64,000 bases of DNA from Vampirovibrionaceae bacterium NZW_1234 (GTDB taxonomy: Bacteria > Cyanobacteriota > Vampirovibrionia > Vampirovibrionales > JAGQHJ01), in the NCBI GenBank assembly GCA_041697335.1, contig JBGUGD010000007.1:1-64000 (forward strand), written 5' to 3'. Below the pieces are notes generated by a model. That model was not told the DNA's origin. It worked only from the letters and a program-made list of their open reading frames with translations, and searched no databases. Below are positions 1,996 to 27,335 of the stretch, in pieces; position 1 is the stretch's first letter; each line of letters begins with the position of its first letter. The position numbers and the translations under genes are program-made.

Positions 1996-2257
1996 CCATA
2001 CATTCTATTTCTAAATAGTATGTGTTTCTCAAGCTTTCAAATTGCTTGGAAAGCCTCGATCAGTTTCATTTCGTAACAAAGCGTATATTGATACGGGCTC
2101 AGTGGGTTGTTTGTCATGATGTGTCAGCGAGGGGGGAGTCAGATATATATCAATAAGTCACTGTCAAAAGTTTGGCTTGACGTGTTTTAAGCCAAGCATC
2201 CTTTTCATAGTTATAGAAGTGGTGATTGTTGTACACGTTGGGCAAGGAGTATTCGGG

Positions 2258-4616: not shown

Positions 4617-4792
4617 ATTGCTCCTTGCAACCCAGATGGTTTGGGCTATTTGCTCAAAAGGACCCGATAGTTAGCATACTGGAGCTTGTTGTCCCAGACA
4701 TTCCCCTACCCTGGCAATTCGGTTTTGTGGCAAACGTTTCCTGACGGTATTCATTGATTTAGAAGGCGTTTTAAACCTCTAGCAGAGAATGC

Positions 4793-6620: not shown

Positions 6621-6805
6621 AGCATCTTCTCCTCTCTGTCTCCTGAGGTTTAAGCATCAGGCCCATGGTGTGTTTTCTGGTATAGTTCGTGAAACCCGAT
6701 GGGGTTTATGACCAATGCATAAAAGAGTTATTGTAATTCATGACCTCCCAAATCCCCCTATCGATGTGGGTAATAGTCCAACCGTGCTCAAACACGGGGG
6801 ACAGA

Positions 6806-9781: not shown

Positions 9782-11632
9782 CTACTCTCGCCGACGCATT
9801 CGGGCCTGCGTGATTTCCAGCGCACGAACAGGGTCCAGAAAACCGGCGCCCTGATCCCGTTCGGTGTAGCGCCTGTTTGGCGTGGCGGCTTCGCGCAGAA
9901 TGGATTGAATGTCATCAAAACTCAAATTGGGGTTCATTTGCAGCATCAGGGCCACCACCCCGGACAAGCGCGGCGCGGCCACGGAGCTACCGCCGTTGAT
10001 ACGACTGAATCGGCGCATAATCGGTGTTTCCAAATCATCCGCCGGAATAGCCACCGTGGGGTTCCACCGGCCATCCCCCCGGCCGGAGTGAAAGGCAATG
10101 GTGTCATCGGCATTGTTATCCGGTGTCCCTTGGGCATTGGCTGTCGCGGTTCGTAACACATGCGAGCTTTTGGCCAGGTCGTTAAAACTCCATCCCGGCA
10201 GGATGGGATCCAGACTGGCATCCGGTGCCGTGTTGCTGCTGGCAATCACAATGACCCGACCACTTTCGGCAGCCTTTCGAGATATGTCACGCCATCGTTC
10301 CAGGGCTTTCTCGTCCTCCCTTCCGCCATCCAGGGCATGGCGAATGTAGCGCATAATGGCCTGGTTTTCCGTGTCGCCGTCTTGCCGGAACCGGAGAATC
10401 TCCCGCGTCAATTGGGGGTATCGGTCTCGCTCGGGTCCCTGAAGGTGCCCCTGAAGATACTGAAATAAACTGGCCGCACTGGCTCCGTCGGAAATATTAA
10501 TTAGGCGCTCGGCTGGGTCGTTGCGTTTCATAATGGCTTCGACGCCGTCGCTAAATTTGTCTATACCATCGGCTAAAACCTGTCTGAGATGGGCACCCAG
10601 GCGTTCCGGGTTTTTATTGAGCATTTCTTTTTCGCGGACCTGCTCAGCCCGAATGGCATCCAGCCGGGTTTGTAGGGATTTCACAGTCGGGTCGGCCTGC
10701 AGCTCCTCGGGTGACACTGGCTTGCCATCGCGAGCTTCGGACAGTTCCTTTTCCCGGGCTTTCATCGCCTTTTCAATAGGATACATTCGGTTTCTGAAAT
10801 TGATCGGTCCCGATTTTGCCAGCGGCGGCGTCATCCCTCGGGAGCTGACACCGGGTGCGATGCCCACATCCTTGTTGTCCAGCATTTCGGCGACTTGTCC
10901 GGCATGATCCCACCGGGTCCGCACCCCGTCTTCCACGTCCTTGGTGTCTTCCAGGATGACGGCTTTAATTCCGGCCCCGGTAATGGGTTTGCCGTTGGGG
11001 TCCACAAATTTTTTATCGGCAATGGCCTTCCTCAGCCGGTCGGCGTAGGCTTGGGTATTCTCCTTGGCCCGGGCTTCAAAGTTTTTCTTGAGGGCCTTGC
11101 CCAGGTCTCCGGCGAAATGATTGTGGGGCATATTGTATCCCAGTCCCAGGGCTACGTCCTCGTTGGCAAAAATAGAGCCCTCTCGCCCATCCAGCAGACG
11201 ATAGCTTCCATCCGCCCGGACCGATCCGACCTCGCGTAATTTGGCCTGATCGCCGTTACCCACCAGAACATACAACGTGCCATCCTTCGCCAGTACAGCG
11301 GCTTCCCGTCGGCCGTTGATCTGAACGCTGGGATCGCCGATGGTGTCTTTTTCCGGAATCGAATCTGCCGAAATCACCCGACCTTCCTTGGGCTTAGGTT
11401 TCACCACGCTGCCTCGTGCCGCCACTGGGGTAAGCGGTTTTGGGCTGGGCTTAGGCGTTTCGCCGGGCAACGGCACGTCGGAAAACGCCACCAGGCTAAA
11501 ATCGTCCTCCTTCGACGAGGCCGGGCCTGGCATCGATTTGCCGTTTGTCGCTGATATTTTCAGTAGGGTCGGGGAACCTAAAATGGCGTTTAACACCGCC
11601 TGAGGCACGCCTTTGCCCAACTTATCGAACAT
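9782..11632 (-). CDS. divergent subtilisin-like serine peptidase (S8) with N-terminal extension
   Basis: GAGIKAVILED (acidic residue), DHAGQVA (His), ASSN (oxyanion Asn), NGGSSVAAPRLSGVVALMLQMNPNL (Ser), QGAGFLD; start set at MFDK behind GGAG (ORF track starts at 11659). Confidence 0.82.
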   Translation of the reverse strand: MFDKLGKGVPQAVLNAILGSPTLLKISATNGKSMPGPASSKEDDFSLVAFSDVPLPGETPKPSPKPLTPVAARGSVVKPKPKEGRVISADSIPEKDTIGDPSVQINGRREAAVLAKDGTLYVLVGNGDQAKLREVGSVRADGSYRLLDGREGSIFANEDVALGLGYNMPHNHFAGDLGKALKKNFEARAKENTQAYADRLRKAIADKKFVDPNGKPITGAGIKAVILEDTKDVEDGVRTRWDHAGQVAEMLDNKDVGIAPGVSSRGMTPPLAKSGPINFRNRMYPIEKAMKAREKELSEARDGKPVSPEELQADPTVKSLQTRLDAIRAEQVREKEMLNKNPERLGAHLRQVLADGIDKFSDGVEAIMKRNDPAERLINISDGASAASLFQYLQGHLQGPERDRYPQLTREILRFRQDGDTENQAIMRYIRHALDGGREDEKALERWRDISRKAAESGRVIVIASSNTAPDASLDPILPGWSFNDLAKSSHVLRTATANAQGTPDNNADDTIAFHSGRGDGRWNPTVAIPADDLETPIMRRFSRINGGSSVAAPRLSGVVALMLQMNPNLSFDDIQSILREAATPNRRYTERDQGAGFLDPVRALEITQARMRRRE

Positions 11633-11903
11633 ACGAGACTCCATAGCATCACTGCACACACACCCGCAGCTACCTATATAAAACCCATCAACCCCCTATT
11701 CGATGCCAATCCAATAGCAATATTAATACAATCCTTAGAATCGCATGGCGTTTAAAAAGCGCCAGACACCTGTGAGCATGTTGCCAATTTGTTACAAAAC
11801 GCATGAATTTTTTGTATTTCTATTTTATTTTTGACTTTATGTTGTATAGTAATGGCTCTGATGAAAAAAATAGGCTATTGGGGTGCTCTCGAATCGTCCA
11901 ATA

Positions 11904-13457
11904 ATGACCGGTGTGATGCTCGGGCCCGTGGGGCATTCATGGCCCTACTCAAATGGTGGAGCCTATTTGCCACCTCATTCTTTCCTGCCTCATCCGGCCT
12001 ACTCGGGATATCCCCCATTTAACCCGTACAACAGACCATATTTCCCTTATTCTTATCCACCTGTGTATGAGCCAAAAGCCTATACGCAGACCAATACTGC
12101 TCCTCAAGCGGTGCTCAGCCGGAACCCGATAGGCTCTTCTGCTGCATCTTCTGCATTTGCCCAAAAAAAACTTCTGTCTAGTCCCACTCAGCCTGCATCA
12201 CTGAATGCATCGGAAACCATTTTGACGGATGGCATGGCTGATAACATAGACAAAAATGTAAAGCCCAACTCCAAAACCTTGTTGTATGCCGGAGGAGCCC
12301 TTGCACTCTCCGCTGCCGTTATAGGTGGAATTCTGTATGCACAGCGTACCCAGGCTAACTCGAAGGTCGAGAGTAAGAAACCGGTTTTGCCCTTGTATAA
12401 ACTTGAGGATTTTAAGGTCCCCCCAGGCCTGGAGACCCCTGAAAAACGCCGTAAAAAATCTGTTGAGCTGGCCAATCTCATCTATCCTGAAATTATAAAA
12501 CGCTATGAGAAAAATCCAAATTCAGCCGAATGGGCTCATGAAGTTAATGAGATCTTTAATAGCCTGCTTCGGAGCCGGGTATACGACAAAGGGCGTGTCA
12601 ATTTTATTGTCAATTATGGGATATTTGTACCAGGCGAATACGGCGGTCGCTATGAGCCAGCTTTGAAACCCAAATATGTAAAAGATACTTATTTAAGCAA
12701 TATGGCTTCTCTGGAGTTAATTAGCTATGCCGGTCTCATCAAGTTCAATAAAAGTCATGTTCAAAAGGCTGTATCCCAAAGTGAGGCTAATATGCCCTGC
12801 TTTTACCTGGGTCAAATTGAAATCAAACCTTCTTTAAAGCCCAGTGACGATGAAGGAAAAAGCAAACTGTATAGTTTGATAGTGCATGAAACTAACCACT
12901 TTCTCTTTGAGCTAGCCAATCACCCGCTTAAGATGCGAAAGGCTCTGGAAACAATTCTCCAAAGTCCGTTTAAGAAAGCTCTTGTCTTGGATGATTGGGA
13001 AACAATGCTGTTCAACCAAATCTTAGCTCATTACAAGTTAGAAACGATTCCTAAGGATGCTAAGCTCTCTCAAGAGAGGGTGGAAAAGTATTGGCAGGTG
13101 TTTACGCGTCTGGCCTCCGATCCCACTCATAAATATCCCTTAATCAGTCAATGGAAGGACAAAGACATTATTTTTAATCAGTGTCCTCGGGACAAGTTAA
13201 AAGCCCTTTTAAAAGTGAAATATCTGAATGAATATGAAGCCTATTTGACCTACAAAGAACGCTTTCGTTCCGAGAACTGTTCAGCAAAAAAAGTTTTTTT
13301 ACACGACCTGGTATCCGGCCTTCGTGCGATGATGTTTCGGGATGTCATTGATTTCGTGGAAGCTGAGATCCTAAAACTGCCTGAAGATCAACGACACAAT
13401 CTTGCACAAAAGGAATCTATTCTTGTCCGTCCAGAAAAGGGAAATGATGCCTTATGA
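11904..13457 (+). CDS. hypothetical membrane-anchored protein with HExxH zincin-like motif
   Basis: Pro/Tyr-rich N-terminus, TM segment LLYAGGALALSAAVIGGILYA, LIVHETNH, downstream NEYEAY as possible third ligand. Confidence 0.6.
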   Translation: MTGVMLGPVGHSWPYSNGGAYLPPHSFLPHPAYSGYPPFNPYNRPYFPYSYPPVYEPKAYTQTNTAPQAVLSRNPIGSSAASSAFAQKKLLSSPTQPASLNASETILTDGMADNIDKNVKPNSKTLLYAGGALALSAAVIGGILYAQRTQANSKVESKKPVLPLYKLEDFKVPPGLETPEKRRKKSVELANLIYPEIIKRYEKNPNSAEWAHEVNEIFNSLLRSRVYDKGRVNFIVNYGIFVPGEYGGRYEPALKPKYVKDTYLSNMASLELISYAGLIKFNKSHVQKAVSQSEANMPCFYLGQIEIKPSLKPSDDEGKSKLYSLIVHETNHFLFELANHPLKMRKALETILQSPFKKALVLDDWETMLFNQILAHYKLETIPKDAKLSQERVEKYWQVFTRLASDPTHKYPLISQWKDKDIIFNQCPRDKLKALLKVKYLNEYEAYLTYKERFRSENCSAKKVFLHDLVSGLRAMMFRDVIDFVEAEILKLPEDQRHNLAQKESILVRPEKGNDAL

Positions 13458-15661
13458 AAACCCAATTTGCGTATTTCACGTTGAACCAACATCGTCATTT
13501 GAACTTTTCTCATGGATTAAATTCGGAGACGACTTTGGCCCACAACCGGATTAATCCTCGCCTTTCTGCCGATCGGTTTCAACAGAAAGAATTATCAGAC
13601 AAGAGCAGCTTCAAACCTCGCTTTTCCGGGCAAACCAAAGAGTATTACTCCAATGCAAAGAAATCACTGTCCCAAGTTCGTCAGGAGATTGAAGATTTAA
13701 AGCGTCAAATGAATCAGCTGGATAAGCCAACGCCCCCACAAGTTCCTAATAAAAAAAGTTTTTTTGAAGAACTCTTTAGCGGTTTATTCAAGCCGGGTGA
13801 TTATCCGGGAGATTCTGTTTATTATGATGCCTGTGTTCCAATGAACTCAAGTTCTGATTCGAGCAGTGAGCCTGATGATGACTGGAAGTACGATTATGAT
13901 GATGCTGACTATAAGCGTGAGTTAGCGATCTATAAGAGCAAGAAAGCCAATTTGCAAAAGAAAATCCAGGAAAAGTTTCAGGCGATTGCGGGTATTGAAG
14001 AACAACGAGCCAAGCTTAAAACCATTCGGGATAAAACGGCTCAGACGACCCGGTGCCCGAATCTAACACCAGAAGAGCTTTTGGCCTTAGCTGAGGGGTT
14101 TGCAACTCAGTTTCAAGAAGTTAAAGACGAGCATTTTTTAACTTTATACCCATTACGGAGCCGACCGGGATTAATAAGTTCAATGAGAGAAGCTGTTAAA
14201 ATTGATTTAGGGTCAGGCTCTCCAGTAGCGCTTTTCCTAAATGAGGGGATTGAAGAAACCCGCAATAACTTGAAACCGGATGCTCCGTTGTCGGCGAAAG
14301 TAGATGCCTTGAATCGTTTTTACTTGCTGGAGGCGGAGGTTGATACCTTTCTAACGGATAGCAAAGCTTTATATCCCAAATTTTTCTCAGAACCAGCAGT
14401 TGAACTAAAAACAGCAGCATTACACGCCATGATGGCTGAGCCAAAGATCCGCCCGGAGAATTATAAACAATTACTCGAAGACACTTTTTGGGGTAAGAAT
14501 GTGGCTTTAAAAAAGATAGCCATGCGTGGGATTCTAAAGGAGCTGACTTCGCCAGGATTTACGCTATCCAATAAAATGGACTTGCAGATTGCCATTTTAG
14601 GGAAATATGAAAAATCCGATTTTGAGCTAAGTGGGTTAGCCCAAACCATAAAACAAAAACGGGAGGACTTAGGGCACTACAGACCACTGGATCAGTTTGC
14701 TGCATCTAAGAAGATTGCGGAAAAGTTTATTGGAAACCCGACATTGGAAAGGACTCTGAAGGGTGCATTAAATGTTTATTACAACAGGTTGGCTGATTAT
14801 TATCAAGATAATAACCGCCTGATTCCACTGACAGGGGCGAATTCGCTAATGTTGTTGGAAGGCCCTCCAGGCATTGGTAAAACAAAGCTCGTCAAAGCGT
14901 TTGCGGATGAAGTTGTTGGATCTCCAAACTTGATTCTCATTAATATGTCAAATATTTCTTCACTGCAGCAACTAAAGGACCAACTCCGTTCGAATGCTTT
15001 AACGCTGGATCCCTATGAACGACGTGTTAAAATGGCTGGGAAAGTCCTGTTTTTGGATGAGTTCCAAAGTTTGGAAGAGAAGAATCCAGCGGTTCAAAAT
15101 GAGATCATTAGTTTTCTCAAGCAGGTATTTAATCGGGAAAGTCATCCGGAATTTGATTTTAAGGACTCTATTGTGGCCGTCGCTACGAATAAGCGCTTAT
15201 CAACCCTGCCTGCCTTCCAAAGTGAATCTGCCTTACCTATGACACAACGTATATACGGAAATAGCCAACGGGTGATGATGAATAATAATCTTCACGAGAA
15301 CTTGGGCGAAATTGTGGATCGCTTTGTGTCGGATAAACTTTATAAAGACTCAAAACCTGATATGAATATTGTTGCCATAGATGACGATGCCAAGACTTAT
15401 TTAAAGCGGTTTCTTCGTAACGTCTTTCCAGATAATTCTGGCGATCAATGTGGTCGCGTGGTGATTGGTGAGATTGTTAATGAGATCATTTCGGCCATGA
15501 ACTGTCAGGAGGGCTTTACTTATACAGCAGCTGATGAATTGACCATCCAAGCTGCGCCTAATTCAAGTGGGTTAATCGTTCGCAAGAATCTCGTTCAGTA
15601 TCAAGGGAAGAGAGATCCATTTCACGTTACGTTTTCCGATTATCAAAGAAGGCGTCTATAG
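13454..15661 (+). CDS. AAA+ ATPase with ClpA/B second-domain-like module and N-terminal coiled-coil/acidic region
   Basis: Walker A GPPGIGKT, Walker B VLFLDEFQ, FDFKDSIVAVATN (compare Clp D2 VDFxNTIIIxTSN), IDDDAKTYL; ATGA overlap with the upstream gene. Confidence 0.8.
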   Translation: MKTQFAYFTLNQHRHLNFSHGLNSETTLAHNRINPRLSADRFQQKELSDKSSFKPRFSGQTKEYYSNAKKSLSQVRQEIEDLKRQMNQLDKPTPPQVPNKKSFFEELFSGLFKPGDYPGDSVYYDACVPMNSSSDSSSEPDDDWKYDYDDADYKRELAIYKSKKANLQKKIQEKFQAIAGIEEQRAKLKTIRDKTAQTTRCPNLTPEELLALAEGFATQFQEVKDEHFLTLYPLRSRPGLISSMREAVKIDLGSGSPVALFLNEGIEETRNNLKPDAPLSAKVDALNRFYLLEAEVDTFLTDSKALYPKFFSEPAVELKTAALHAMMAEPKIRPENYKQLLEDTFWGKNVALKKIAMRGILKELTSPGFTLSNKMDLQIAILGKYEKSDFELSGLAQTIKQKREDLGHYRPLDQFAASKKIAEKFIGNPTLERTLKGALNVYYNRLADYYQDNNRLIPLTGANSLMLLEGPPGIGKTKLVKAFADEVVGSPNLILINMSNISSLQQLKDQLRSNALTLDPYERRVKMAGKVLFLDEFQSLEEKNPAVQNEIISFLKQVFNRESHPEFDFKDSIVAVATNKRLSTLPAFQSESALPMTQRIYGNSQRVMMNNNLHENLGEIVDRFVSDKLYKDSKPDMNIVAIDDDAKTYLKRFLRNVFPDNSGDQCGRVVIGEIVNEIISAMNCQEGFTYTAADELTIQAAPNSSGLIVRKNLVQYQGKRDPFHVTFSDYQRRRL

Positions 15662-15662
15662 T

Positions 15663-17006
15663 ATGAGAGCCATGGTTACACCTTCGAGTTTGTTTCAAGT
15701 TGTCCCTACTTTTTCAACCCGGCATTGTTCAGAATACATACCGGTAGTTTCACAGGACTCTAGGGCTCTTTCGCGTCTACGAGCGACAATGTCTAAGGGT
15801 GTTCTTTTGTTTGGGGCTGATCAAGTTAGTCTTTCGGATCAAATAAAACAGAATGCGACGCGCAATGTCCGAGCGTGGGAAATTGTCCGATCCTTTTTGC
15901 AAGTTCCAGAAAAGTTGATGACTGCCTCTCAGCCATTCAATGGTGCTTTGAATCAGTCATCAACATTGGGTATTCATAAATTATTACCGTATATCCCGAT
16001 GCTAAAGCGGTTTGCCTTGGTTGGGGATGTTTTAGGTCCGATTTTGGCCCTTGTCGGATTTAATCATGACAATTCTGTTGCCTTAAAAAGTCATAACCAA
16101 TTGCTTAAAAATCATAAGGATGTCTTAGAGAAGTTTAAAGCAGTTAATACGCAATTGAATACTTTATCCACCCTCATCCAAGAAAGTCACCAGAAGTTGC
16201 ATACGGAATTAACTGCTCTCCGTAGAAGAATTGATGATGTCGAAGGTCGAGTTATTCTTCTTCAGGACAGTGATTTAGAAGCAGGCTTGATGCATATGAC
16301 TGAAGCCTTTTATTGGTTGAAGAAACTCGGAGAAGCTTCTCAAAGCATGGGGCCGGGGGTTCATAATGAACAAAAAGGTTTTTCTGCATCATTGAATAGA
16401 GCGAAAGCCAGTTTGGCGAACGCAATCAATAAAAGCTCAACATTAGAAAAACGTGTCGATGCTAAATTTAATTATGCTATCTGCCACGCATTATCCGGAG
16501 CAGAAGATTTGGCCTGTCAGCAGCTTGACAGTGCCTTGCAGGACATTAGCCAGGAGCCCACTGGGAATAACTATATTGCTGCAGCTCAGTTAGTCAATGC
16601 ATCACATGATTCTCAAATCGCAACATTATTTACTCGCTTGGCCTTATACAAAGCTGTAAAAGCCGATAAAGACGAGTTTGGCCATGAGTATATTGCCTCT
16701 GCCATAGGGTATTACAAACTGGGGGTGGCGATTGCACAGGAGTCCGGCAAACCTGACTTGCAAAAATCCGAAGATGCCCTGAATAAAGCATTAACCATAG
16801 GAGAAAATATTTTTTCGACCAACCACCCGTTCTTGGCTTTGACCTGCAAATCTTTGGGGAGTGTCTTGATAAACCAGAACAAGCGGGCCGAAGCTTTGAG
16901 CGTCCTGAAAAAGGGTTCTGCCATTGCAGAAAAAACTTTAGGAGCAAGTCATAAATTGGCACTGGAAATAAGACAACTCCAGAGTTCTTTAGATTCATCT
17001 AACTAA
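15663..17006 (+). CDS. coiled-coil protein with C-terminal TPR (kinesin-light-chain-type) repeats
   Basis: NHPFLALTCKSLGSVLINQNKRAEALSVLKKGSAIAEKTLGASH; hydrophobic helix LVGDVLGPILALVGF followed by heptad coiled coil; starts 1 nt after the upstream stop. Confidence 0.72.
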   Translation: MRAMVTPSSLFQVVPTFSTRHCSEYIPVVSQDSRALSRLRATMSKGVLLFGADQVSLSDQIKQNATRNVRAWEIVRSFLQVPEKLMTASQPFNGALNQSSTLGIHKLLPYIPMLKRFALVGDVLGPILALVGFNHDNSVALKSHNQLLKNHKDVLEKFKAVNTQLNTLSTLIQESHQKLHTELTALRRRIDDVEGRVILLQDSDLEAGLMHMTEAFYWLKKLGEASQSMGPGVHNEQKGFSASLNRAKASLANAINKSSTLEKRVDAKFNYAICHALSGAEDLACQQLDSALQDISQEPTGNNYIAAAQLVNASHDSQIATLFTRLALYKAVKADKDEFGHEYIASAIGYYKLGVAIAQESGKPDLQKSEDALNKALTIGENIFSTNHPFLALTCKSLGSVLINQNKRAEALSVLKKGSAIAEKTLGASHKLALEIRQLQSSLDSSN

Positions 17007-17287
17007 AGCGTTTGTTTGATGCATTTCATGAGTGAGTTTCAGGGATAGGTTTGTTTCTGTTGACGCTAATTCTATCTGGGAAACTAATATACGCCTATCG
17101 AAACTATTGTCTCCTATTATAGTAATTATATTGGCCTGTATTATAGGTTGAGTCTTCGTAATAATATAGCGTTTACCCCCTTTGAATCCTTAAGATTCTC
17201 TTAAAATGGGAGCTTTTTGTATATAAAAATGATATAATGTCCATGACATTTCATTCATAGCTTATTGAGAAGAGAAAGGAATTGATT

Positions 17288-18013
17288 ATGACAAAGGCTG
17301 CGATAGATTGGATGGAAGTTCAAGGGGTGTATCTGGCGGGGGAGAAGCCTCGGCGGATTGCACAGATGTATGGGATTGACGCAAAACAGCTGAGAAACGT
17401 CATTACGCGCCAGGGGTGGTGCAAGCAGCGTGAGGAGATTCGGCTGAAAGTGGCCGAGGAATTCGTCGCCGCCCAACGGGATATGAACACTCGGGCCATG
17501 AACGTGGTCAATAATGTCCTGGCGGCGCTGGTCAACGACGACGGGTCCATGAACTGGGAGGCCTGTCGGCGGGTGCCTGCCTACCTGGTGCGGTTGGCCC
17601 TCAATATGGCGATGCCTGACAAAATTCGCATCAAGGAATATACCGAAACCTACGATTTTGGCGACCTGCCCGAAGACCCGCCCGAAGCTCTGCCCGTGCA
17701 GCAGACCCCGGCCCCGATGCCCACGGAACAGGCGCCGCCCCCGAAAACCGCCTCTGCGGCCACCAAACCGAACACCCCGGCCGAGACCAAACCGGTGACC
17801 CCCAACAACGCCCCGGCAATCACGCCCCCCTCTCCCCCGGTTCCGGCGTCTCGCTATACCCGGGAAGAAGCCATGCAACGGCTGATGACCAATCTGGCGA
17901 ACAACCAAACCTCGGTGCTGGTCAACGGGGAATACCTGGATGCGCTGATGCCTCAGAATTCGTCGACTTCCAAGCCCGCCGGGGCTCCGGTGAGTCAAAA
18001 CGAGTCAAAATGA
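17288..18013 (+). CDS. hypothetical protein: N-terminal HTH resembling phage terminase small subunit, then Pro/Thr-rich linker
   Basis: IDWMEVQGVYLAGEKPRRIAQMYGIDAKQLRNVITRQGW fits the DW..(I/V)...Y.AG....R.IA..YG.......GW pattern; AAGGA RBS before ATG 17288. Confidence 0.55.
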   Translation: MTKAAIDWMEVQGVYLAGEKPRRIAQMYGIDAKQLRNVITRQGWCKQREEIRLKVAEEFVAAQRDMNTRAMNVVNNVLAALVNDDGSMNWEACRRVPAYLVRLALNMAMPDKIRIKEYTETYDFGDLPEDPPEALPVQQTPAPMPTEQAPPPKTASAATKPNTPAETKPVTPNNAPAITPPSPPVPASRYTREEAMQRLMTNLANNQTSVLVNGEYLDALMPQNSSTSKPAGAPVSQNESK

Positions 18014-18358: not shown

Positions 18359-19498
18359 ATGATTCTTGCAGAAAAATCCAGGTTGCTCCCCAACGCCCAA
18401 GGCATCTACCCGGAAGCCTACCGGCAACTGAAGCACGCCCTGACGGCCCTTGCGGATCGGAATTTTTTGAAAGCCAAAGTCCTGCTGGACAAAGCAGCAA
18501 AGCGCCTTCCCGAGCTGGAGAACACCCCGGAGGGAACCCAGCTGCTTTTCTTCCTCGAGGCCGCCTATAAGCGCCTTGACCCCGCCTCATCCGCCCTGGG
18601 CAACCTGTACCTGTTGCCGGATCAGGGCCAGCAGATCGCCATGTTCAACTTTATGGCCACCCGCTTTCCCGTGGTCACCTTTGCCCAGGACATCGTCAAC
18701 ACCCTTTGCCTCAGCGAGTTCCAGGGCCAGACCCATGTCACCCTGCTGGATATCGGCATCGGCACCGGCCAGCAGATAGCCCGCATTCTCAGGCAATTAA
18801 CACCGGCTACGGCCCCAGGCCAGCGCCTTACCGTCATCGGGATCGAACCGGCAGAGGCCAATCTGGCCCAGGCCCGGGAAACCCTGCTGGAGGTGGCCCG
18901 TCAACAACACCTCCCCGTTGATTTCATCGGCATCAACCAGAGTGTGGAAACCCTCCTCACCCCCCAGGGCTGGAAGGCCTTTACGCACCAACTGGGCTCG
19001 GTCCGGCACCAGGGCACGCTCATCGTGAACGCGTCCTTTGCCCTGCACCACGTTCAGCCCATCCGCCTGCGCTTGGAATTGTTCCAGAAACTCCGCCAGC
19101 TGTCCCCGACACGGGTCACCATGATTGAACCCTACGCCGACTTCGTCACCCCGCGCCTGATGCAGCGCTTTGATGAGGCGTGGTATCATTACGGCCTCAC
19201 CTTCCAGGCCATCGACCGGATTGACGCCACGGATCAGGAAAAAAGCCTCGTCAAACAGGTCTTCTTCGCCCGGGAAATCCAGGACGTGCTGGCCAAAAAC
19301 GGCCGCCGCATCGAACAGTTCGAAACCGGTGATATGTGGCTGAATCGCCTGACCAAAGCCGGTTTTTACCCCGAACTCCCCACCGGCATTCCCGACACCA
19401 TCCCGGACTGCCCCTCGGTCTCGGTGAAGGCCTTCTCCAACTACATCGGCCTGTGTGTCAACGAGTACCCGATCATTTCGATTATTGCCGTCCGCTAA
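18359..19498 (+). CDS. bacterial GRAS-domain protein (Rossmann methyltransferase-like fold)
   Basis: Colinear GRAS motifs: FFLEAAYKRL (LHRI), HVTLLDIGIGTGQQ (VHIID), LTVIGI, LIVNASFALHH, LRQLSPTRVTMIEPYAD and RFDEAWYHYGLTFQAID (PFYRE), FFAREIQDVLA, RIEQFETGDMWLNRLTKAGF; GAGGGG RBS. Confidence 0.88.
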   Translation: MILAEKSRLLPNAQGIYPEAYRQLKHALTALADRNFLKAKVLLDKAAKRLPELENTPEGTQLLFFLEAAYKRLDPASSALGNLYLLPDQGQQIAMFNFMATRFPVVTFAQDIVNTLCLSEFQGQTHVTLLDIGIGTGQQIARILRQLTPATAPGQRLTVIGIEPAEANLAQARETLLEVARQQHLPVDFIGINQSVETLLTPQGWKAFTHQLGSVRHQGTLIVNASFALHHVQPIRLRLELFQKLRQLSPTRVTMIEPYADFVTPRLMQRFDEAWYHYGLTFQAIDRIDATDQEKSLVKQVFFAREIQDVLAKNGRRIEQFETGDMWLNRLTKAGFYPELPTGIPDTIPDCPSVSVKAFSNYIGLCVNEYPIISIIAVR

Positions 19499-19520
19499 AA
19501 AACACCCCTCAGGGTGTTGT
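19497..19520. terminator. probable intrinsic terminator between the convergent GRAS and glutamate-synthase-like genes
   Basis: AACACCC-ctca-GGGTGTT hairpin (19501-19518) preceded by an A run, i.e. a U tract on the minus strand. Confidence 0.55.
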
Positions 19521-19547: not shown

Positions 19548-21065
19548 TTACGGCCGGATTAAAAACGGCTCGTTGGGATTGGCCTGCTGCCAATACCGGC
19601 GATACTTCTTGGGCAGTTTCCACAGCCAAAGCGACAATAACGCCCCGGGTGGCAAAAACTCGTAGACCTCATCCAGGGTCGCCATATCACCATAGCCAAT
19701 TCGTTTCTGGATATGAAAGGGCCGGATGTCCTGTGGGTGCTCCACACCGGCAATGGACAACAGGTCCATGACCTCGTCCAGCGTGATGCGGTGGTAGTTG
19801 TACAGGCGCTCCGTGTTGAGGGCGGTATCAAAGTTCCGTATCAGCCACGGGCTTTGCGTGGCAATGCCCTTCAGGCATGTCCCCTTGTAACACTCGCGCT
19901 GCTGATCACAGCCCACAGCCAGCATCATCCCGCGCGCCGTCGAACACAAATCGGCCCCCCGCGCCAGCTTGGAGAAGATGTCTCGCTCCGTGAACACCCG
20001 CCCCGAGGCAATAATCTTAATGTGCTGCCGAAGGTTGGTTCCCATCAGTGCGTTGTGAATGAACAGAAGCGCATCATCCAAAGGAGATCCTGTAAAGCCG
20101 GATGCTCCTTTGGAGACACCTGCGCTTCCGGCTTCCATGCCATCCACTGTGATAAAGTCCAACAGAATCCCGGTCTTTCGCATGGCCTTGCAAATGGCCA
20201 GGAACCAGTGACGGTGACTCAACCCCAGCTTGATGCCCACCGGCTTGCCCTGGGCCAATTCACGCAGCTGCTGAACAAAATACATCAGCTCCATGGGGGT
20301 CGAAAACGAGGAATGACGGTCTTGAAGCTCCACACAACTGCTGAGGGGAACACCCAAAACCTTGGCCAACCCGATGGTTAATTCCTGTGCCGGAAGCGAC
20401 TTGCGCGGCTCCACTCCCTGGGAGAGCTTCAGCTCAATCATCCGCACATTAGGCAGGGTCGCTTTTTTCTGAAACTGCACCGGGTCAAACTGCCCGTTCT
20501 TGTCACGACAGCCGAAATACCCGGTTCCCACCTGCCACACCACATCCCCGGCCTGATGCGACTCCGGATAGTACCCGGCATGCAAGGCCTCCAGAAACGT
20601 ATCCATCTCAAAGTCGTTGGTGTCGATATCGATATCCACCCCGAAGTGATAGGGGCTGATGCCCGCCTCACCCGTGTTCTGAAAAAACTCCCCGCGCCGG
20701 GCCGCCTGATTCAACGCCAGGATAAAATTCTTGCTCATGGGCCCATAACTTAAGGCGGCACAGTTGAATACCGATGCCGCATAGGGCTGCTCACACTGCG
20801 GCCCACCCACGACGATTCTGGGCTGGCGGGCCATTCTCGGGGCTTTGATGTACGAGGGCAGCAACGATTCGTACCCAAGCTGCTCTACATCTTCCGTTGT
20901 GCCAAAGGCCTCCACTTGCCGAATACCCAGAGCCCGTTCGGCAATCAGTCGAGCAATCTCGTCCGCAATGGGCTTGGCTTGGACCGCTGGTTTCTCACGC
21001 AGGCCATTGACAAAGTACATCGTACTCTCGTTCATGGATAAGCGATTGCGAAAGCGTTTGACCAT
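19548..21065 (-). CDS. FMN-binding glutamate synthase family protein (stand-alone YerD-like FMN domain)
   Basis: ALSYGPMS, NTGEAG, WQVGTGYFGCR, ELKLSQG, KPVGIK, DFITVDG, IASG, ARGMMLAVGC...CYKGTCLKGIATQ (Fe-S Cys cluster). Confidence 0.9.
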   Translation of the reverse strand: MVKRFRNRLSMNESTMYFVNGLREKPAVQAKPIADEIARLIAERALGIRQVEAFGTTEDVEQLGYESLLPSYIKAPRMARQPRIVVGGPQCEQPYAASVFNCAALSYGPMSKNFILALNQAARRGEFFQNTGEAGISPYHFGVDIDIDTNDFEMDTFLEALHAGYYPESHQAGDVVWQVGTGYFGCRDKNGQFDPVQFQKKATLPNVRMIELKLSQGVEPRKSLPAQELTIGLAKVLGVPLSSCVELQDRHSSFSTPMELMYFVQQLRELAQGKPVGIKLGLSHRHWFLAICKAMRKTGILLDFITVDGMEAGSAGVSKGASGFTGSPLDDALLFIHNALMGTNLRQHIKIIASGRVFTERDIFSKLARGADLCSTARGMMLAVGCDQQRECYKGTCLKGIATQSPWLIRNFDTALNTERLYNYHRITLDEVMDLLSIAGVEHPQDIRPFHIQKRIGYGDMATLDEVYEFLPPGALLSLWLWKLPKKYRRYWQQANPNEPFLIRP

Positions 21066-21475
21066 AGCCAATGACCCTTTTCTCGACCGTACTCCATCGA
21101 GGTCCTCGTGTTCCGAGAACCTGAAGCCTCGTCATTGATGCGATAACTACCCCTCGATCCTGACGATGCCCGAGACATGAACGTTGGGTATGTCCTTGTT
21201 CCAGCCCGTTTTTACTGCGGCTGTACCCATCGTCATGCGTCTTTATTATCAAGATTCCCAGAACCCAAAACGGATAAACTGCCCAACTGGGTAATCCTCT
21301 GAAACCGCCTCTATGATTGTTTTTAAAAGATTATTGAATTCATAATAATTTACATTACTTTTTTGAAATTTGCGCTAAAATCATCAAAGGTGCATCTACC
21401 CGTAAACAAGACCCACTGCCTCGGGTTTTGTAACAGATAGGCCTTTTTTGCGGAATCCATATTCATCCCTTTCTT

Positions 21476-23392
21476 ATGACAAATCACGCTTTAGCTAACC
21501 CCTTCCTTGATCAGCTGTCTTATTGTCTTTTAAATCACCAAGGACAGATTATTGACTGTTCCCGTAAAACAGCAGGGCTGTTCGGAAGTTCGCCGGAGGA
21601 CCTGCAAGGGCACTCTATTGTCGATGTGCTTCGGATAACCTCGGAAATTCCTGCAACCTTCGAGGGGATGTTAAGCCAAGCCAATGCCACTGGGGAGCTG
21701 CGTTTTGAAGCCGAGTATTCCCCTGCTGAGGGTTCTGCCTGCCACTTCGAAGCTACCCTGACACCTTGTCGCATTGCAGAGGGCCAGGACGAGGGCGCTC
21801 TTCTCCAGATTTGGGATGTGACCCACCACAAGCAGCTCGAAAGAAAGCTCCGGGAGCGCAAAGAGCTTTTTTCTTCAACCTTCTACCAGGCCGCCGTTGG
21901 TATGGTTCATGTGAATATGTCCGACGCCCGCTTTCTCGGGGCCAATAATACCATCTGTGAGATGCTGGGCTATACCGAGGAAGAATTCTGCTCCAAGACC
22001 ATTATGGATGTCACGCATCCGGATGATATTTTATCGGACTTGGATAACACCAAGCGGATGATTGACGGTGAAATCAACATGTTTAGCATTGAAAAGCGCC
22101 TTCTGCGCAAGGATGGCTCTTCGGTGTGGACAAGGCTCACGGCCGCTTCCGTTTCTCGGGATGAGCAGGGCCATGCCAAATACGGCATGGCTGTTGTAGA
22201 GGATATCACTCAGATTAAAGAAGCTCAGGATGCGTTGAAGGAATCCGAAGAGCGCTTTAAAACCTTGGCCGATTCCGCCCCGGTTTTAATCTTTATGACC
22301 GACACGAACGCCAATCATCTGTACGTTAACAAGAACTATCTCAACTATACGGGGCTCACCTATAGCGATCTTTTGGGTACCCAATGGCAAAATAGGATTC
22401 ATCCTGAGGACCGGGAAGAATACCTTTCACGGATGGCCTCGGCCTGTCAGCATCAGGAGTCACTTCGGGCTGAAGTTCGCATTAATCGCAACGACGGCCA
22501 ATATGGATGGGTATTGGTGTCGGTTGTGCCGCGCTATACAGCCACCGGACTATTTATGGGCTTTGTTGGCAGCGGCATCGATATTACGGATAAAAAGCTT
22601 CTTGAAGAGTCTCTGGAAAAAGCAAAGGTCACCGCCGAAGATCTCAACCGACGCAAGAGCGAGTTTCTCTCCATGATGTCTCACGAACTGCGGACACCCT
22701 TGAATTCCATTATCGGGTACTCCAGCATTATTCAAAACAACATGGCCGGCCCCCTGAACGACAATCAGAGCAAGTTCATTCAGAATGTGGTTTATAGCGG
22801 TAAGCACCTGTTGAACCTGGTCAATGACCTTCTGGATCTGTCCAAGGTAGAAGCCGGGAAAATGAAAATTACCGTTTCTCAGTTTGACCTTCCCGTACTG
22901 GTCCAAGACGTCCAATCCATGTTGAACGATTTGGCCCATCGAAAAAATATTACCCTGACCTTCAGTATTCAGCCTGGTATTACCACCGTTCAAGCCGATC
23001 CCGAACGGTTCAAACAGATTCTAATTAATCTCATTACCAATGGAATCAAATTTAATCGCCCCGGTGGCGAGGTCCGTGTACGTTTGTTCAAGCGGGATGA
23101 TGATGCCTGGCTCATTGGTCAGGTCCAGGACTCGGGGATTGGGATTCCAAAGAGCAAGTTTGCAAATCTGTTTGGTAAATTCTATCAGGTCGACACATCT
23201 CCAGCCCGTTCCAATGAAGGCAGTGGTCTGGGATTGGCCTTGACCAAAGAATTGATTGAACTGCATGGGGGGACAATTGAAGTGGATAGTGAAGAAGGGG
23301 TTGGAACCACATTTACGTTCCGCCTTCCCACTGTCCAGACCGTGGTGGTGAAGGGAACACACAATGACGCAGTCCGTAATTCTTCTCGTTGA
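21476..23392 (+). CDS. cytoplasmic multi-PAS sensor histidine kinase
   Basis: Three PAS/PAC domains (THPDD, IHPED), H-box SHELRTPL, NLITNGIKF, DSGIGI, GSGLGL. Confidence 0.95.
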   Translation: MTNHALANPFLDQLSYCLLNHQGQIIDCSRKTAGLFGSSPEDLQGHSIVDVLRITSEIPATFEGMLSQANATGELRFEAEYSPAEGSACHFEATLTPCRIAEGQDEGALLQIWDVTHHKQLERKLRERKELFSSTFYQAAVGMVHVNMSDARFLGANNTICEMLGYTEEEFCSKTIMDVTHPDDILSDLDNTKRMIDGEINMFSIEKRLLRKDGSSVWTRLTAASVSRDEQGHAKYGMAVVEDITQIKEAQDALKESEERFKTLADSAPVLIFMTDTNANHLYVNKNYLNYTGLTYSDLLGTQWQNRIHPEDREEYLSRMASACQHQESLRAEVRINRNDGQYGWVLVSVVPRYTATGLFMGFVGSGIDITDKKLLEESLEKAKVTAEDLNRRKSEFLSMMSHELRTPLNSIIGYSSIIQNNMAGPLNDNQSKFIQNVVYSGKHLLNLVNDLLDLSKVEAGKMKITVSQFDLPVLVQDVQSMLNDLAHRKNITLTFSIQPGITTVQADPERFKQILINLITNGIKFNRPGGEVRVRLFKRDDDAWLIGQVQDSGIGIPKSKFANLFGKFYQVDTSPARSNEGSGLGLALTKELIELHGGTIEVDSEEGVGTTFTFRLPTVQTVVVKGTHNDAVRNSSR

Positions 23393-23735
23393 AGATAATA
23401 TTATGAATCTGAATATGGCAACCTTTTTGCTGCAACGTGCCGGCTTTCAGACCCTTGAAGCGGAAGATGCTGTCACAGGAATTCGTCTGGCACAAGAGCA
23501 TCAGCCGGATCTGATCTTATTGGATATTCATTTGCCCGGGCTCGATGGGTATGATGCAGCCCGCATTATCAAGGCCAATCCGGATACCGCGCATATCAAT
23601 GTCGTCGCGTTCACGGCACATGCCATGGAGGATGAGCTCCAGAAAGCCTTGGCATGTGGGTGTGTGGGTATTATTTCAAAGCCCATTAATGTCGAATCCT
23701 TTGCACAGGACGTGGCTCAATTTCTAAAGACATAG
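23364..23735 (+). CDS. single-domain response regulator (CheY/DivK-like)
   Basis: LLVEDN, PDLILLDIHLPGLDG, FTA, SKPI; overlaps the kinase 3' end. Confidence 0.95.
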   Translation: MTQSVILLVEDNIMNLNMATFLLQRAGFQTLEAEDAVTGIRLAQEHQPDLILLDIHLPGLDGYDAARIIKANPDTAHINVVAFTAHAMEDELQKALACGCVGIISKPINVESFAQDVAQFLKT

Positions 23736-24142: not shown

Positions 24143-24625
24143 ATGAGTAAAGTCAAAGCGATTCCTGATGGGTACCAGGTTATTATTCCCTACCTGACCG
24201 TTCATAATGTTCCGGAAGCCATTGAATTCTATAAGAAAGCATTTGGCGCAGAAGAGCGCGTCCGGGTTCCTGGTTTTCATGGAAAAGTGGGGCATGCAGA
24301 AATTTTAATCGATGGTCACGCCATTATGTTGACGGATGAGTTTTCCTACCTGGAGGCTGTCAGCCCAAGAACCCTTGGGGGGACCACCATGGGAATCCAC
24401 TTGTATGTCGAAGATGTGGATGCCGTTGTTGCGCGCGCCCTGGAAGCCGGGTGTCGGATTGTGTTCCCCATTGAAGATCAATTCTGTGGAAACCGCTCCT
24501 GTGGGCTGGCCGATCCGTTTGGCCACAACTGGTATGTGGCGACCCACACAGAAGACATGACCTATGAGGAAATGTGTCGTCGTGGCGCCGAAGCCGCCAA
24601 GGCGGCAGAAGTCCTGACCAACTAG
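24143..24625 (+). CDS. VOC/glyoxalase (PhnB-like) family protein
   Basis: PYLTV...AIEFYKKAFGA, HAEI, LYVEDVDA...A..AG, DPFGHNW; AAGGAG RBS. Confidence 0.92.
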   Translation: MSKVKAIPDGYQVIIPYLTVHNVPEAIEFYKKAFGAEERVRVPGFHGKVGHAEILIDGHAIMLTDEFSYLEAVSPRTLGGTTMGIHLYVEDVDAVVARALEAGCRIVFPIEDQFCGNRSCGLADPFGHNWYVATHTEDMTYEEMCRRGAEAAKAAEVLTN

Positions 24626-24645
24626 GGTTGATTCGAATCACTCGT

Positions 24646-24678
24646 GAATGAGGAGCCGAGATAAAAGGCTCCTCATTC
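24646..24678. terminator. 12-bp perfect hairpin after the VOC gene (terminator or mRNA stabiliser)
   Basis: GAATGAGGAGCC-9 nt-GGCTCCTCATTC; no clear U tract. Confidence 0.5.
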
Positions 24679-24781
24679 CGATAATACGTTGTGAGACGCC
24701 AGGGTGTTTTCTGCGTTCATGCGGATTAACAGCCGAGATGGCCTTTGGTTCACCTGCGTGCGAAGGACGAGGATTTTTGTT

Positions 24782-25309
24782 ATGTCTAATCAACACTATC
24801 ATTTAGCCCACCTCAATATCGGTCTTGCTCGGGCTCCCCTGTTTGATCCTGTGATGGCTGGGTTTCTGGCCAAGCTGGAGGAGATGAATAACCTGGCTTA
24901 CGACAGCCCCGGCTTTGTCTGGCATTTAAAAATCGATATTTATAATCCCGAGGATTTAGCCATGTATGGCGAACCCGGTGTCTTATTTAATTTGTCTGTC
25001 TGGGAGTCCGTCGAATCGCTCTATACCTATGTTTACCGATCCCAGCATGGGACCATGATGAAATCCCGCAGAGACTGGTTTAACCCGATGGACGGTCCGA
25101 GTTATGCCTTGTGGTGGTTGCCGGTGGAAGAACTGCCCACGCTGGCGGATGGGAAAAAGCGTATTGCCCATCTGGCAGCCCATGGGCCAACGCCCCATGC
25201 CTTTACGTTTAAAGACAGCTTTCCCAACCCGGCTGCTGTGCCTCAACCCCAACGCGAGGGCGCGTTGATATTACAACCCCAGTCGAGTCTGAGGCCACTT
25301 CAGCCGTAA
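24782..25309 (+). CDS. DUF3291 domain protein (ABM-like fold)
   Basis: HLAHLNI, SPGFVWHL, NLSVWESVESL..YVYRS.H....RRDWF, LWW, HGPTPHAFTF; GAGG RBS before ATG 24782. Confidence 0.88.
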   Translation: MSNQHYHLAHLNIGLARAPLFDPVMAGFLAKLEEMNNLAYDSPGFVWHLKIDIYNPEDLAMYGEPGVLFNLSVWESVESLYTYVYRSQHGTMMKSRRDWFNPMDGPSYALWWLPVEELPTLADGKKRIAHLAAHGPTPHAFTFKDSFPNPAAVPQPQREGALILQPQSSLRPLQP

Positions 25310-25492
25310 CCTGGGTTCCGTCTCCGATTTTGTCTTTTTTTAAGGTGGATTTAATCATGAAGGCCTTTTGATTGGAGGGAGTTCCGGCGTTATTCCGGCG
25401 CGTTGCCTTCTGTTTTTTGATGTTGCATTCCGGTGATGCTTACGCTATTTCTGACAAGATTATGTATCGGATAGAAAAATAAAGGATGCCCT

Positions 25493-26221
25493 GTGAACGT
25501 TCTGATTGTTTATGCCCACCCGGAGCCCCAAAGTTTTAATGGTGCGCTTCTCCAAATCGCCATGGAGACCTTGACAGCCCAGGGGCACGCGGTGCAGGTT
25601 TCCGATTTGTATGCCATGAACTTTAACCCCGTCTCTGACCGGCAAAACTTTACCACGGTGAAAGACCCGGATTATTACAAGCAACAACAGGAAGAACTCC
25701 ACGCCACGGACCATGACGGCTTTGCCCCAGACATCCAGGCTGAGATGGACAAGCTTGCGTGGTGTGATGTTTTGCTACTGCAGTTTCCACTGTGGTGGTT
25801 TGGAATGCCTGCGATTCTCAAGGGCTGGGTTGATCGGGTTTTTGCCATGGGAAAAATTTATGGCGGCGGAAAATGGTACGACGATGGGGCTTTTCAGGGG
25901 AAACGGGCACTCTGCTCAATTACCATCGGCGGGCCCGAGGCCATGTATCGCCCCGACGGCCTGAACGGTGATATTCATCAGATCCTTTTTCCGATTCATC
26001 ATGGGATCTTGTACTTTACCGGGTTTAGCGTCCTGCCCCCGTTTCTGGTGCACAGCCCTGCCCGAATCCCTGATGACGCCCGGCAAGCGTATCTGGCGCA
26101 ATTCCGGCATTATCTCGAAACGCTTGATACCTTGAAACCGCTCGACTATCCCCGGCTTTCCGATTATGATGAGTCTTTCATTCTGAAACCGGTCGTAACC
26201 GCTGATGTCGTGAAAGGATAG
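25493..26221 (+). CDS. NAD(P)H:quinone oxidoreductase (flavodoxin-2 / NQO family)
   Basis: VLIVYAHPEPQSFN, SDLYAMNFNP, QFPLWWFGMPAILKGWVDRV. Confidence 0.93.
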   Translation: MNVLIVYAHPEPQSFNGALLQIAMETLTAQGHAVQVSDLYAMNFNPVSDRQNFTTVKDPDYYKQQQEELHATDHDGFAPDIQAEMDKLAWCDVLLLQFPLWWFGMPAILKGWVDRVFAMGKIYGGGKWYDDGAFQGKRALCSITIGGPEAMYRPDGLNGDIHQILFPIHHGILYFTGFSVLPPFLVHSPARIPDDARQAYLAQFRHYLETLDTLKPLDYPRLSDYDESFILKPVVTADVVKG

Positions 26222-26225
26222 TTCC

Positions 26226-27335
26226 ATGGCAGTAACATCGCAACACCTGCTTTCCTCGTTTCAACTGGGGGATTTGACTCTGGCCAACCGTGTGGTGATG
26301 GCCCCAATGACCCGGGGGCGTGCCGGGAAAGAACGTATTCCCAATGCCATGATGGCCGAGTATTACGCACAGCGGGCCAGTGCAGGCCTCATCATTACCG
26401 AAGCCACCAGCATCTCCGAACAGGGGCTGGGCTGGGTGGATGCGCCCGGCATTTATAAGCCCGAGCAAACCCAAGGCTGGAAGCAGGTGGTGGATGCCGT
26501 ACACCAGAAAGGTGGCAAGATATACCTGCAACTGTGGCATTGCGGTCGGGCGTCTCACACCAGTTTCCACCCTGACCTTGGTTTGCCGGTTGCGCCCTCG
26601 GCCATTGCCATTTCCGGCGATCATATTCACACCCCCAACGGTAAACAGCCCTACGAAGTGCCTCGTGCCCTGGAAACCCACGAGATTCCCGGCATTGTGG
26701 AGGACTACAGAAAGGCTGCTGAGCAAGCCCGCCTGGCTGGCTTTGATGGTGTTGAAATCCACGGTGCCAACGGCTACCTGATTGATCAGTTCCTGCAGGA
26801 CAAGACCAATCACCGCACCGATGTCTACGGTGGTCCTATCGAAAACCGGGCCCGGTTTTTATTGGAGATTGTCGATGCCATCTGCACCGTCTGGCCCAAG
26901 GAGCGAGTTGGGGTCCGTATCTCCCCGAATGGCGTCTTTAATGACATGGGCGACTCCGACGCTCGTGCAACGTTCTTTTACGTGGCCCAGCAATTAGACC
27001 TGCGCCAAATCGGCTACCTCCACGTCATGGACGGCTTGGGTTTCGGCTTTCATGGAATTGGCCAGCCCCTGCTGTTGGGTGAATTCCGGGAGCATTTCCA
27101 CCGGGCCTTAATCGGCAATGTCGGCTACACGCAGGAAAATGCGGAAGACACCCTGGCCCGCCAAGATGCCGATCTGATCGCCTTTGGCCGCCCCTTCATC
27201 TCCAATCCCGATCTGGTAGAGCGCTTCCGTCACAACCAGCCTCTGGAAGCTTTTGACGATATGTCTCACTGGTACACCCCCGGTCCTGAAGGCTATACGG
27301 ACTACCGTCCTTTCGCCGAAGCAGCGCATGTTTAG
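26226..27335 (+). CDS. nemA: old yellow enzyme / alkene reductase (NemA-like)
   Basis: NRVVMAPMTR, QLWHCGR, AGFDGVEIHGANGYLIDQF, NHRTDVYGG, FGRPFISNPDL. Confidence 0.93.
   Translation: MAVTSQHLLSSFQLGDLTLANRVVMAPMTRGRAGKERIPNAMMAEYYAQRASAGLIITEATSISEQGLGWVDAPGIYKPEQTQGWKQVVDAVHQKGGKIYLQLWHCGRASHTSFHPDLGLPVAPSAIAISGDHIHTPNGKQPYEVPRALETHEIPGIVEDYRKAAEQARLAGFDGVEIHGANGYLIDQFLQDKTNHRTDVYGGPIENRARFLLEIVDAICTVWPKERVGVRISPNGVFNDMGDSDARATFFYVAQQLDLRQIGYLHVMDGLGFGFHGIGQPLLLGEFREHFHRALIGNVGYTQENAEDTLARQDADLIAFGRPFISNPDLVERFRHNQPLEAFDDMSHWYTPGPEGYTDYRPFAEAAHV

Follow-up and report, generated by a model that had tools for sequence, protein, structure and literature searches.

The window, by which we mean the whole 64,000-nucleotide stretch of DNA analysed here, encodes a stand-alone protein related to the GRAS growth regulators of plants. 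Such a gene raises two questions: what a GRAS protein does in a bacterium, and whether this one stands close to the origin of the plant family. Taken by itself, the protein is unremarkable, since its family has been known from 2012 onwards; the informative part is its genomic context, namely a flavoprotein partner and neighbouring histidine kinases.

Fold and conserved residues of the GRAS protein

The open reading frame begins with ATG, preceded by AGAGGGG 9 nt upstream, and its translation contains the GRAS motifs in the order FFLEAAYKRL, HVTLLDIGIGTGQQ, GIEP, LIVNASFALHH, LSPTRVTMIE, RFDEAWYHYGLTFQAID, FAREIQDVLA, RIEQFETGDMWLNRLTKAGF and IAVR. An earlier note on this DNA had listed these motifs in the same order, with IAVR in place of the C-terminal SAW; all were found, and the C-terminus carries I376-A377-V378 where the SAW motif is absent. 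Pfam PF03514 matched residues 23-338 (113.2 bits where the cut-off is 27; E=1.7e-32) over positions 4-326 of the 374 in the model, which bears out the claim of a complete bacterial GRAS domain. Methyltransf_12 matched weakly (23.7 bits, under the Pfam cut-off), and an NCBIfam scan of the protein gave no match. The best 11 PDB sequence matches were all plant GRAS proteins (top E=1.2e-11), with DELLA, SCL3, SCR and NSP2 as the best relatives, and a search of the ESM Atlas returned GRAS clusters alone.

An AlphaFold2 model built with 78 homologues reached a mean pLDDT of 92.6. Values below 50 were confined to residues 1-7 and 82-85, so the protein has no long disordered N-terminus of the plant type, as the earlier note had also read; the GRAS domain begins near residue 18-23 of the 379-residue chain. 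Foldseek placed plant GRAS structures at ranks 1-10 (TM 0.71-0.79), and VIA-align superposed the model on SCL3, SCL7, RGA and SHR with Z 34.7-37.4 over 340-351 residues, compared with Z 16.9 for the best non-GRAS fold. Many methyltransferases aligned at Z 14-17 over 170-255 residues, which defines a Rossmann-like methyltransferase core. The profile and structure searches thus yielded a significant GRAS match and a fold that is not merely that of a generic class I methyltransferase, and confirm the protein as a genuine bacterial relative of the plant GRAS regulators. It also resembles the bacterial GRAS proteins proposed as methylases by Zhang, Iyer & Aravind in 2012, as cited in PMC9474926 and PMC4279901: these are stand-alone proteins of ~370 aa with a Rossmann core, SAM residues and a predicted methylase function, and on that description the window protein itself is no different. 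The gene is present in a single copy in the source genome; its GC3 of 0.78 lies at the 99.7th percentile of 2588 open reading frames, which may point to a foreign source or to strong expression.

Residue conservation was tallied over 294 GRAS sequences covering >250 model positions, with 8 identical rows removed and one plant protein included (Table 1). Besides the tabulated sites, Q139 (99%), E197 (98%), E306 (99%), E319 (98%) and W327 (99%) are conserved. The SAM site said to be retained in this protein is indeed conserved among bacterial GRAS proteins at D131, G133 and G135 and at E163, the residue expected to contact the ribose in class I methyltransferases. E163, H231 and H277 are missing in all seven plant GRAS sequences compared, mostly of DELLA type, and G133 is still present in four of them; since motif I partly survives in some plant DELLAs, the other three residues are the more telling. 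Plant GRAS proteins, as described in PMC5873383, lack SAM motifs and bound neither SAM nor SAH in ITC.

Table 1. Features of the GRAS locus (frequencies refer to the 294 GRAS sequences)
Feature	Position	Strand	Remarks
Stand-alone bacterial GRAS protein, non-SAW clade	18359..19498	+	379 aa; helical cap and class I methyltransferase core
Motif I, D131-I-G-I-G-T-G137 (SAM glycine loop)	18749..18769	+	D131 90%, G133 99%, G135 99%
E163, acidic residue after strand 2	18845..18847	+	E 87% and D 12%; plants 0/7
H230-H231 after strand 4	19046..19051	+	98%, 98%; candidate catalytic or metal ligands
E257	19127-19129	+	100%; candidate catalytic or metal ligand, putative role
H277	19187-19189	+	94%; candidate catalytic or metal ligand, putative role
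7-bp hairpin between the converging GRAS and flavoprotein genes	19501..19518		z -2.59 on +, -1.35 on -
Stand-alone glutamate-synthase-like FMN/[3Fe-4S] protein, GRAS-linked clade	19548..21071	-	PF01645, 180 bits
PAS-PAS-PAS histidine kinase	21476..23392	+	~1.9 kb from GRAS; candidate read-out
Single-domain response regulator	23364..23735	+	overlaps the kinase stop
DUF3291 protein	24704..25309	+	recurs near the pair in the window's clade; 7/94 loci, duplicates counted

The near-invariance of the SAM site and of the histidine and glutamate set, together with the loss of E163, H231 and H277 in plants, makes methyltransferase activity plausible, and judging from this conservation the protein is quite probably a SAM-dependent, catalytically active methyltransferase. 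The substrate is not readable from the fold, because O-, N- and C-methyltransferases tie: the closest non-GRAS structures, BelI, MM_2633, CmoA, histamine N-methyltransferase, SgvM and Hen1, all score Z 16.1-16.9. No assayed bacterial GRAS protein was found in the literature searched.

Distribution and genomic context

Bacterial GRAS proteins are common, contrary to the earlier description of them as sparse: a search of GTDB with two strict peptide patterns retrieved 209 matches. The 80 kept for comparison come from Cyanobacteria, Bacteroidota, Paenibacillus, Gemmatimonadota, Myxococcota, Proteobacteria and the archaeon Methanoperedens, and the nearest named loci among them belong to Vampirovibrionales or Melainabacteria, at identities of at most 58%. 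A profile search returned 2031 representatives at 50% identity, plants among them. GRAS matches above the Pfam cut-off were detected in 11 of 301 genomes of the class, every one in the window's order. Strong matches occur in 11 of 49 genomes in the order survey and, in a phylum sample of 401 genomes, in the source genome and one other only; weak matches (E 1e-5 to 1e-3; 2 in the class, 2 in the order, 7 genomes in the phylum sample) were left uncounted.

The earlier note had singled out the convergent glutamate-synthase-like gene for comparison among relatives, and the comparison of neighbourhoods shows that it matters. Across the 49 genomes of the order, a rewritten form of this flavoprotein adjoins GRAS in 10 of the 11 GRAS-bearing genomes (G090 is the sole one with no flavoprotein match); all ten order copies of the rewritten form lie beside GRAS, and none was found elsewhere. 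The ten proteins (identity at least 50%) form one clade with support 100 in a quick tree. Eight of the pairs are convergent and two tandem, so the genes are usually not co-transcribed. On the minus strand a U-run follows the hairpin between them, so the hairpin probably acts as the terminator of the flavoprotein gene; the consensus scan missed it, and the promoter and terminator scan performed at chance (1 promoter-like site against 1.4 expected, 5 terminator-like sites against 3.9).

The protein shares PF01645, the barrel fold, the Cys triad and an equivalent of K931 with the FMN domain of glutamate synthase (1EA0, 1OFD), K215 aligning to K931 of the Azospirillum enzyme. It differs from these structures and from the stand-alone 'FMN-binding glutamate synthase family' in that GAKPGHGG is rewritten, with a deletion, to GVEP and the arginine is lost (K937 to E221 and R957 to L239 in 1EA0 numbering); relative to the canonical family, GGTG is changed to AGT/AGS and the canonical N-terminal motifs are missing. 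We take K937 and R957 to be the lysine and arginine that bind 2-oxoglutarate, a role for which no statement was found in the literature searched. In a wider collection the rewritten clade comprises 56 clusters, with the Cys triad in 56/56, Lys to Glu in 53/56 and Arg to Met/Leu in 56/56, whereas canonical stand-alone proteins keep AKP in 64/64. The source genome holds two canonical paralogs elsewhere (contigs C8 and C34), which would leave the GRAS-linked copy free to change, and the conservation of the substitutions themselves suggests a new pocket rather than decay. The second paralog, G000:C34:24887-26290 (locus L117), and its counterparts L116, L104 and L105 align without a gap at residues 144-173, where other canonical copies show one; this type keeps GAKPGHGG and is a candidate sister of the rewritten clade.

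Indirect evidence of linkage, inflated by shared ancestry, comes from the wider collection. For 29 of 53 GRAS-clade clusters, the longest contig is exactly the same size as that of one of the 56 rewritten flavoprotein clusters, compared with 0 of 64 for the canonical flavoproteins. Across these 29 cluster pairs the pairwise identities correlate (rho 0.63). A metagenome scan with the single flavoprotein as query gave no match; a further scan gave 49 loci, three of the rewritten type and 46 weaker matches. GRAS was seen in two of the three (L137, L138), the third (L139) ending inside the gene, and in none of the 46.

Histidine kinases were found to be enriched near GRAS. Of the 50 loci whose flanks are complete, 20 have a kinase within 4 kb, and in each of these the distance is no more than 2.01 kb; where ~10 kb of flank was available, kinases were near in 18/38 loci as against 8/38 at 5-9 kb; and 8 of 10 loci of the window's clade have a kinase near, compared with 206 of 2554 genes of the source genome, although these counts, like the linkage counts above, come from related genomes and are not independent. 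The other 30 of the 50 loci, including L015 and L020 of the window's clade, have no kinase within 4 kb. The kinases vary in architecture and in the side on which they lie, which argues for repeated recruitment and against one dedicated receptor. No membrane-sensor Pfam domain was found in the kinase of the window. Neither the GRAS and rebuilt-flavoprotein module nor the kinase enrichment was found in the literature searched, whose coverage leaves out most subscription journals.

Other lineages pair GRAS with different enzymes. A HisC-like PLP gene lies directly 3' of GRAS in 22 of 26 Bacteroidota loci (L089 unscored), and these partners look active, since they keep the SFSK lysine. GRAS-aminotransferase fusions occur in Bacteroidales and Streptomyces in opposite domain orders. 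A ScyB-like amino-acid dehydrogenase lies 3' of GRAS in two cyanobacterial loci, an alanine dehydrogenase directly upstream in L015, and a 2-hydroxyacid dehydrogenase downstream in one Paenibacillus locus. Among 121 scanned GRAS proteins, six carry CBS fusions and seven TerB fusions (three more at a looser cut-off), while many loci have no amino-acid enzyme, TerB, CBS or V4R-like neighbour. No NRPS or other biosynthetic genes appear among the annotated neighbours. In Gemmatimonadota (L032:11359-11922, L050, L060, L072) a conserved protein of ~188 aa with a weak, sub-cut-off V4R match is directly 3' of GRAS, and a cyanobacterial GRAS gene (L186) has two TerB genes and a CHAT protease gene at its flanks, echoing the TerB fusions. 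O-methyltransferase genes (PF00891) were noted near the GRAS-flavoprotein pair at three loci of the window's clade, L014:14538-15581, L020:9896-10951 and L027:13095-14135.

The remainder of the window offers several separate observations. Upstream of GRAS, a 243-aa open reading frame (17282-18013, +) without Pfam or NCBIfam match has a Pro/Ala-rich tail and, by eye, an N-terminal helix-turn-helix like that of terminase small subunits; it was not seen beside GRAS at other loci. Farther upstream lie three co-oriented genes (11883-17006) encoding a 524-aa protein with no Pfam match and a HETNH metallopeptidase-like motif, an AAA ATPase and a TPR protein, the latter two low in GC (42%), preceded by a subtilase gene (9782-11659, -) and by an ordinary stress island (3726-9622, -) with MscS, two tandem-Usp proteins and a P-type cation ATPase. 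Downstream, 3' of the kinase (24143-27335, +), glyoxalase, DUF3291, flavodoxin-like quinone reductase and old-yellow-enzyme genes form an electrophile-detoxification set that may be regulated by the GRAS module. Across the open reading frames of the source genome, an [RH]FG motif shows ~4-fold enrichment over the N-terminal 50 residues (81 and 69 occurrences in the first two 25-residue bins, 13-23 in later ones), and several orphan proteins in the window (2177-3718, 13454-15661, 15663-17006) carry related variants (HFG, RFSG, LFG) close to their N-termini. The motif is possibly a secretion signal; none was found at the GRAS N-terminus.

Proposed function and competing explanations

Our preferred reading, held tentatively and at somewhat less than even likelihood, is that the GRAS protein methylates a small molecule as one of two enzymes in a module, and that the product of this module feeds into two-component signalling. 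It would be a cytoplasmic SAM-dependent enzyme acting on a small amino-acid-derived metabolite, with SAM held at D131-G137, E163 and E197 and the substrate in the cavity beneath the helical cap, where H230, H231, H277 and E257 would activate it directly or via a metal. The flavoprotein would be a duplicate of the stand-alone glutamate-synthase family with its putative 2-oxoglutarate pocket rebuilt (Lys to Glu, Arg to Leu/Met); because the pocket is rebuilt, it may oxidise or reduce some other compound, conceivably a positively charged one (an amine or imine, for example), and would feed or follow the methylation step. Its slot would be taken, in other phyla, by a PLP enzyme or an amino-acid dehydrogenase. 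The methylated product, or its precursor, would be sensed by the adjacent histidine kinase, much as Ralstonia PhcB makes a methyl-ester signal for the kinase PhcS (PMC8578825, PMC11960443). The likeness to PhcB-PhcS is a functional analogy alone: both link a SAM methyltransferase to a histidine kinase, but PhcB acts on a hydroxy fatty acid, and no flavoprotein partner figures in the description given by these sources. We infer a shared pathway for the GRAS protein and the flavoprotein and an amino-acid-derived substrate class, while the proposed link of the GRAS product to kinase signalling has, in our estimate, roughly an even chance of being right.

A non-catalytic sensor is the alternative that survives best, although we consider it somewhat unlikely. 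The GRAS protein would bind SAM, SAH or a metabolite in its cavity and act through protein contacts, as plant GRAS proteins are described to do (PMC5873383), the flavoprotein would be a pseudo-enzyme serving as redox or ligand sensor, and the pair would tune the neighbouring kinase. The kinase enrichment is consistent with this, as are the loss of putative substrate residues from the flavoprotein, the CBS and TerB fusions and, weakly, the V4R-like neighbours. However, the histidine and glutamate set beyond the SAM site is near-invariant in bacteria and lost in plants, the pattern of catalytic residues; the PLP partners look active; and the flavoprotein substitutions are themselves conserved, which speaks for a new pocket.

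Metabolic tailoring without signalling also appears unlikely. Here a metal-dependent 2-oxo-acid C-methyltransferase similar to SgvM or MppJ would make a beta-methyl amino acid, the flavoprotein, transaminase or dehydrogenase would perform the amino/oxo interconversion, and the kinases would regulate expression or be passengers. The 2-oxo-acid C-methyltransferases SgvM, MppJ and MrsA partner with aminotransferases, and all partner classes of bacterial GRAS interconvert amino and oxo acids. SgvM, which shares the class I core, is moreover the best non-GRAS Foldseek match, and its Zn-binding histidines, H244 and H296 (PMC10502145), have a spacing similar to that of H230/H231 and H277. Yet the SgvM match is partial (TM ~0.4) and ties with O- and N-methyltransferases, and SgvM lacks the GRAS cap. 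The GRAS protein belongs to a different family: it has no Pfam (PF00891, PF08100) or NCBIfam match to the O-methyltransferase type with an N-terminal dimerisation domain. Biosynthetic genes are missing from its annotated surroundings, and an acidic residue replacing lysine in the flavoprotein would presumably suit a 2-oxo acid poorly.

A bolder extension of the preferred methyltransferase reading, which we regard as speculative and quite unlikely, would have bacterial GRAS proteins synthesise methylated signals that derive from amino acids and form a class not yet described, with a lineage-specific, interchangeable precursor enzyme (in the window, the newly repurposed flavoprotein) and an adjacent kinase as reader.

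Relation to plant GRAS proteins

The window protein resembles plant GRAS proteins (RGA, SCL3, SCL7, SCR, SHR, NSP2) in its cap and core fold (Z 35-37, rmsd 2.6-3.1), in the order of regions and in the equivalents of H230, E257, E319 and W327. It differs, at ~21% identity, in lacking the disordered N-terminus and SAW, in keeping E163, H231, H277 and an intact GxG loop, all lost in plants, and in belonging to a bacterial clade other than the plant sister group. When the Pfam model, which is plant-based, was scanned against 121 proteins chosen for spread from 218, 116 scored 79-160 bits, four bacterial proteins 260-317 and one plant protein 578. A search from one of these four returned a bacterial clade including Sorangium and Caldilineaceae, plus six plant proteins. 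A SAW-like end is present in 17 of 18 of these plant-like bacterial proteins and in 7 of 7 plants, compared with 0 of 13 in the window's clade, and identity to plant GRAS is 26-33% for the SAW-bearing clade against 21% for the window protein. A quick LG+G4 tree of 35 rows (five plant rows, no algal rows) united plants and the SAW-bearing clade on one branch with SH-aLRT 99, and forcing plants together with the window's clade was rejected in the AU test on the same rows (delta lnL 139, p-AU 2.6e-60). This placement fits the single GRAS transfer to plants from one soil-bacterial subgroup reported in PMC12448838 and PMC9942845.

The earlier note had linked this gene to the origin of plant GRAS and to a possible action on algal metabolites, should the host be a Vampirovibrionia-like bacterium associated with algae; neither idea found support. 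On this tree and these identities, the window protein is a cousin of the plant family and does not stand near the plant donor. An algal target is unsupported, given that proteins with this core are also found in Bacteroidota, Paenibacillus, Gemmatimonadota and an archaeon and that the window protein has no hydrophobic leader. That the gene stands close to the ancestor of plant GRAS and acts on algal metabolites in a predator associated with algae is highly improbable, its ancestry part being largely refuted: the domain is complete and the host probably belongs to Vampirovibrionales, an order that includes an algal predator, but the AU test, the SAW distribution, the plant identities and the Pfam score all point to the other clade, and the protein lacks the N-terminal [RH]FG motif enriched in its host. 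Transfer from plant to bacterium was likewise rejected, since the gene falls within a broad bacterial clade whose SAM residues are intact.

The SAW-bearing clade (P0214, P0081, P0238, P0219-P0265) comprises ~50 clusters, among them Sorangium, Caldilineaceae and many metagenomic ones, and combines the SAW end with the full SAM and histidine set as the sister group of plants. For the question of plant origin, this clade (P0214, P0081, P0238) and not the window gene is the right target.

The GRAS gene and its co-diverging partner make up a compact module of two genes for soluble proteins, which helps to narrow down the substrate and can be expressed in E. coli, so that the role of GRAS proteins before plants becomes testable. 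According to PMC5873383, plant GRAS proteins retain a cavity of a size to hold a ligand, though none is known. If the signal-synthase reading were true, the product class would indicate what kind of ligand the large, empty cavity of DELLA, SCR and SHR originally bound.
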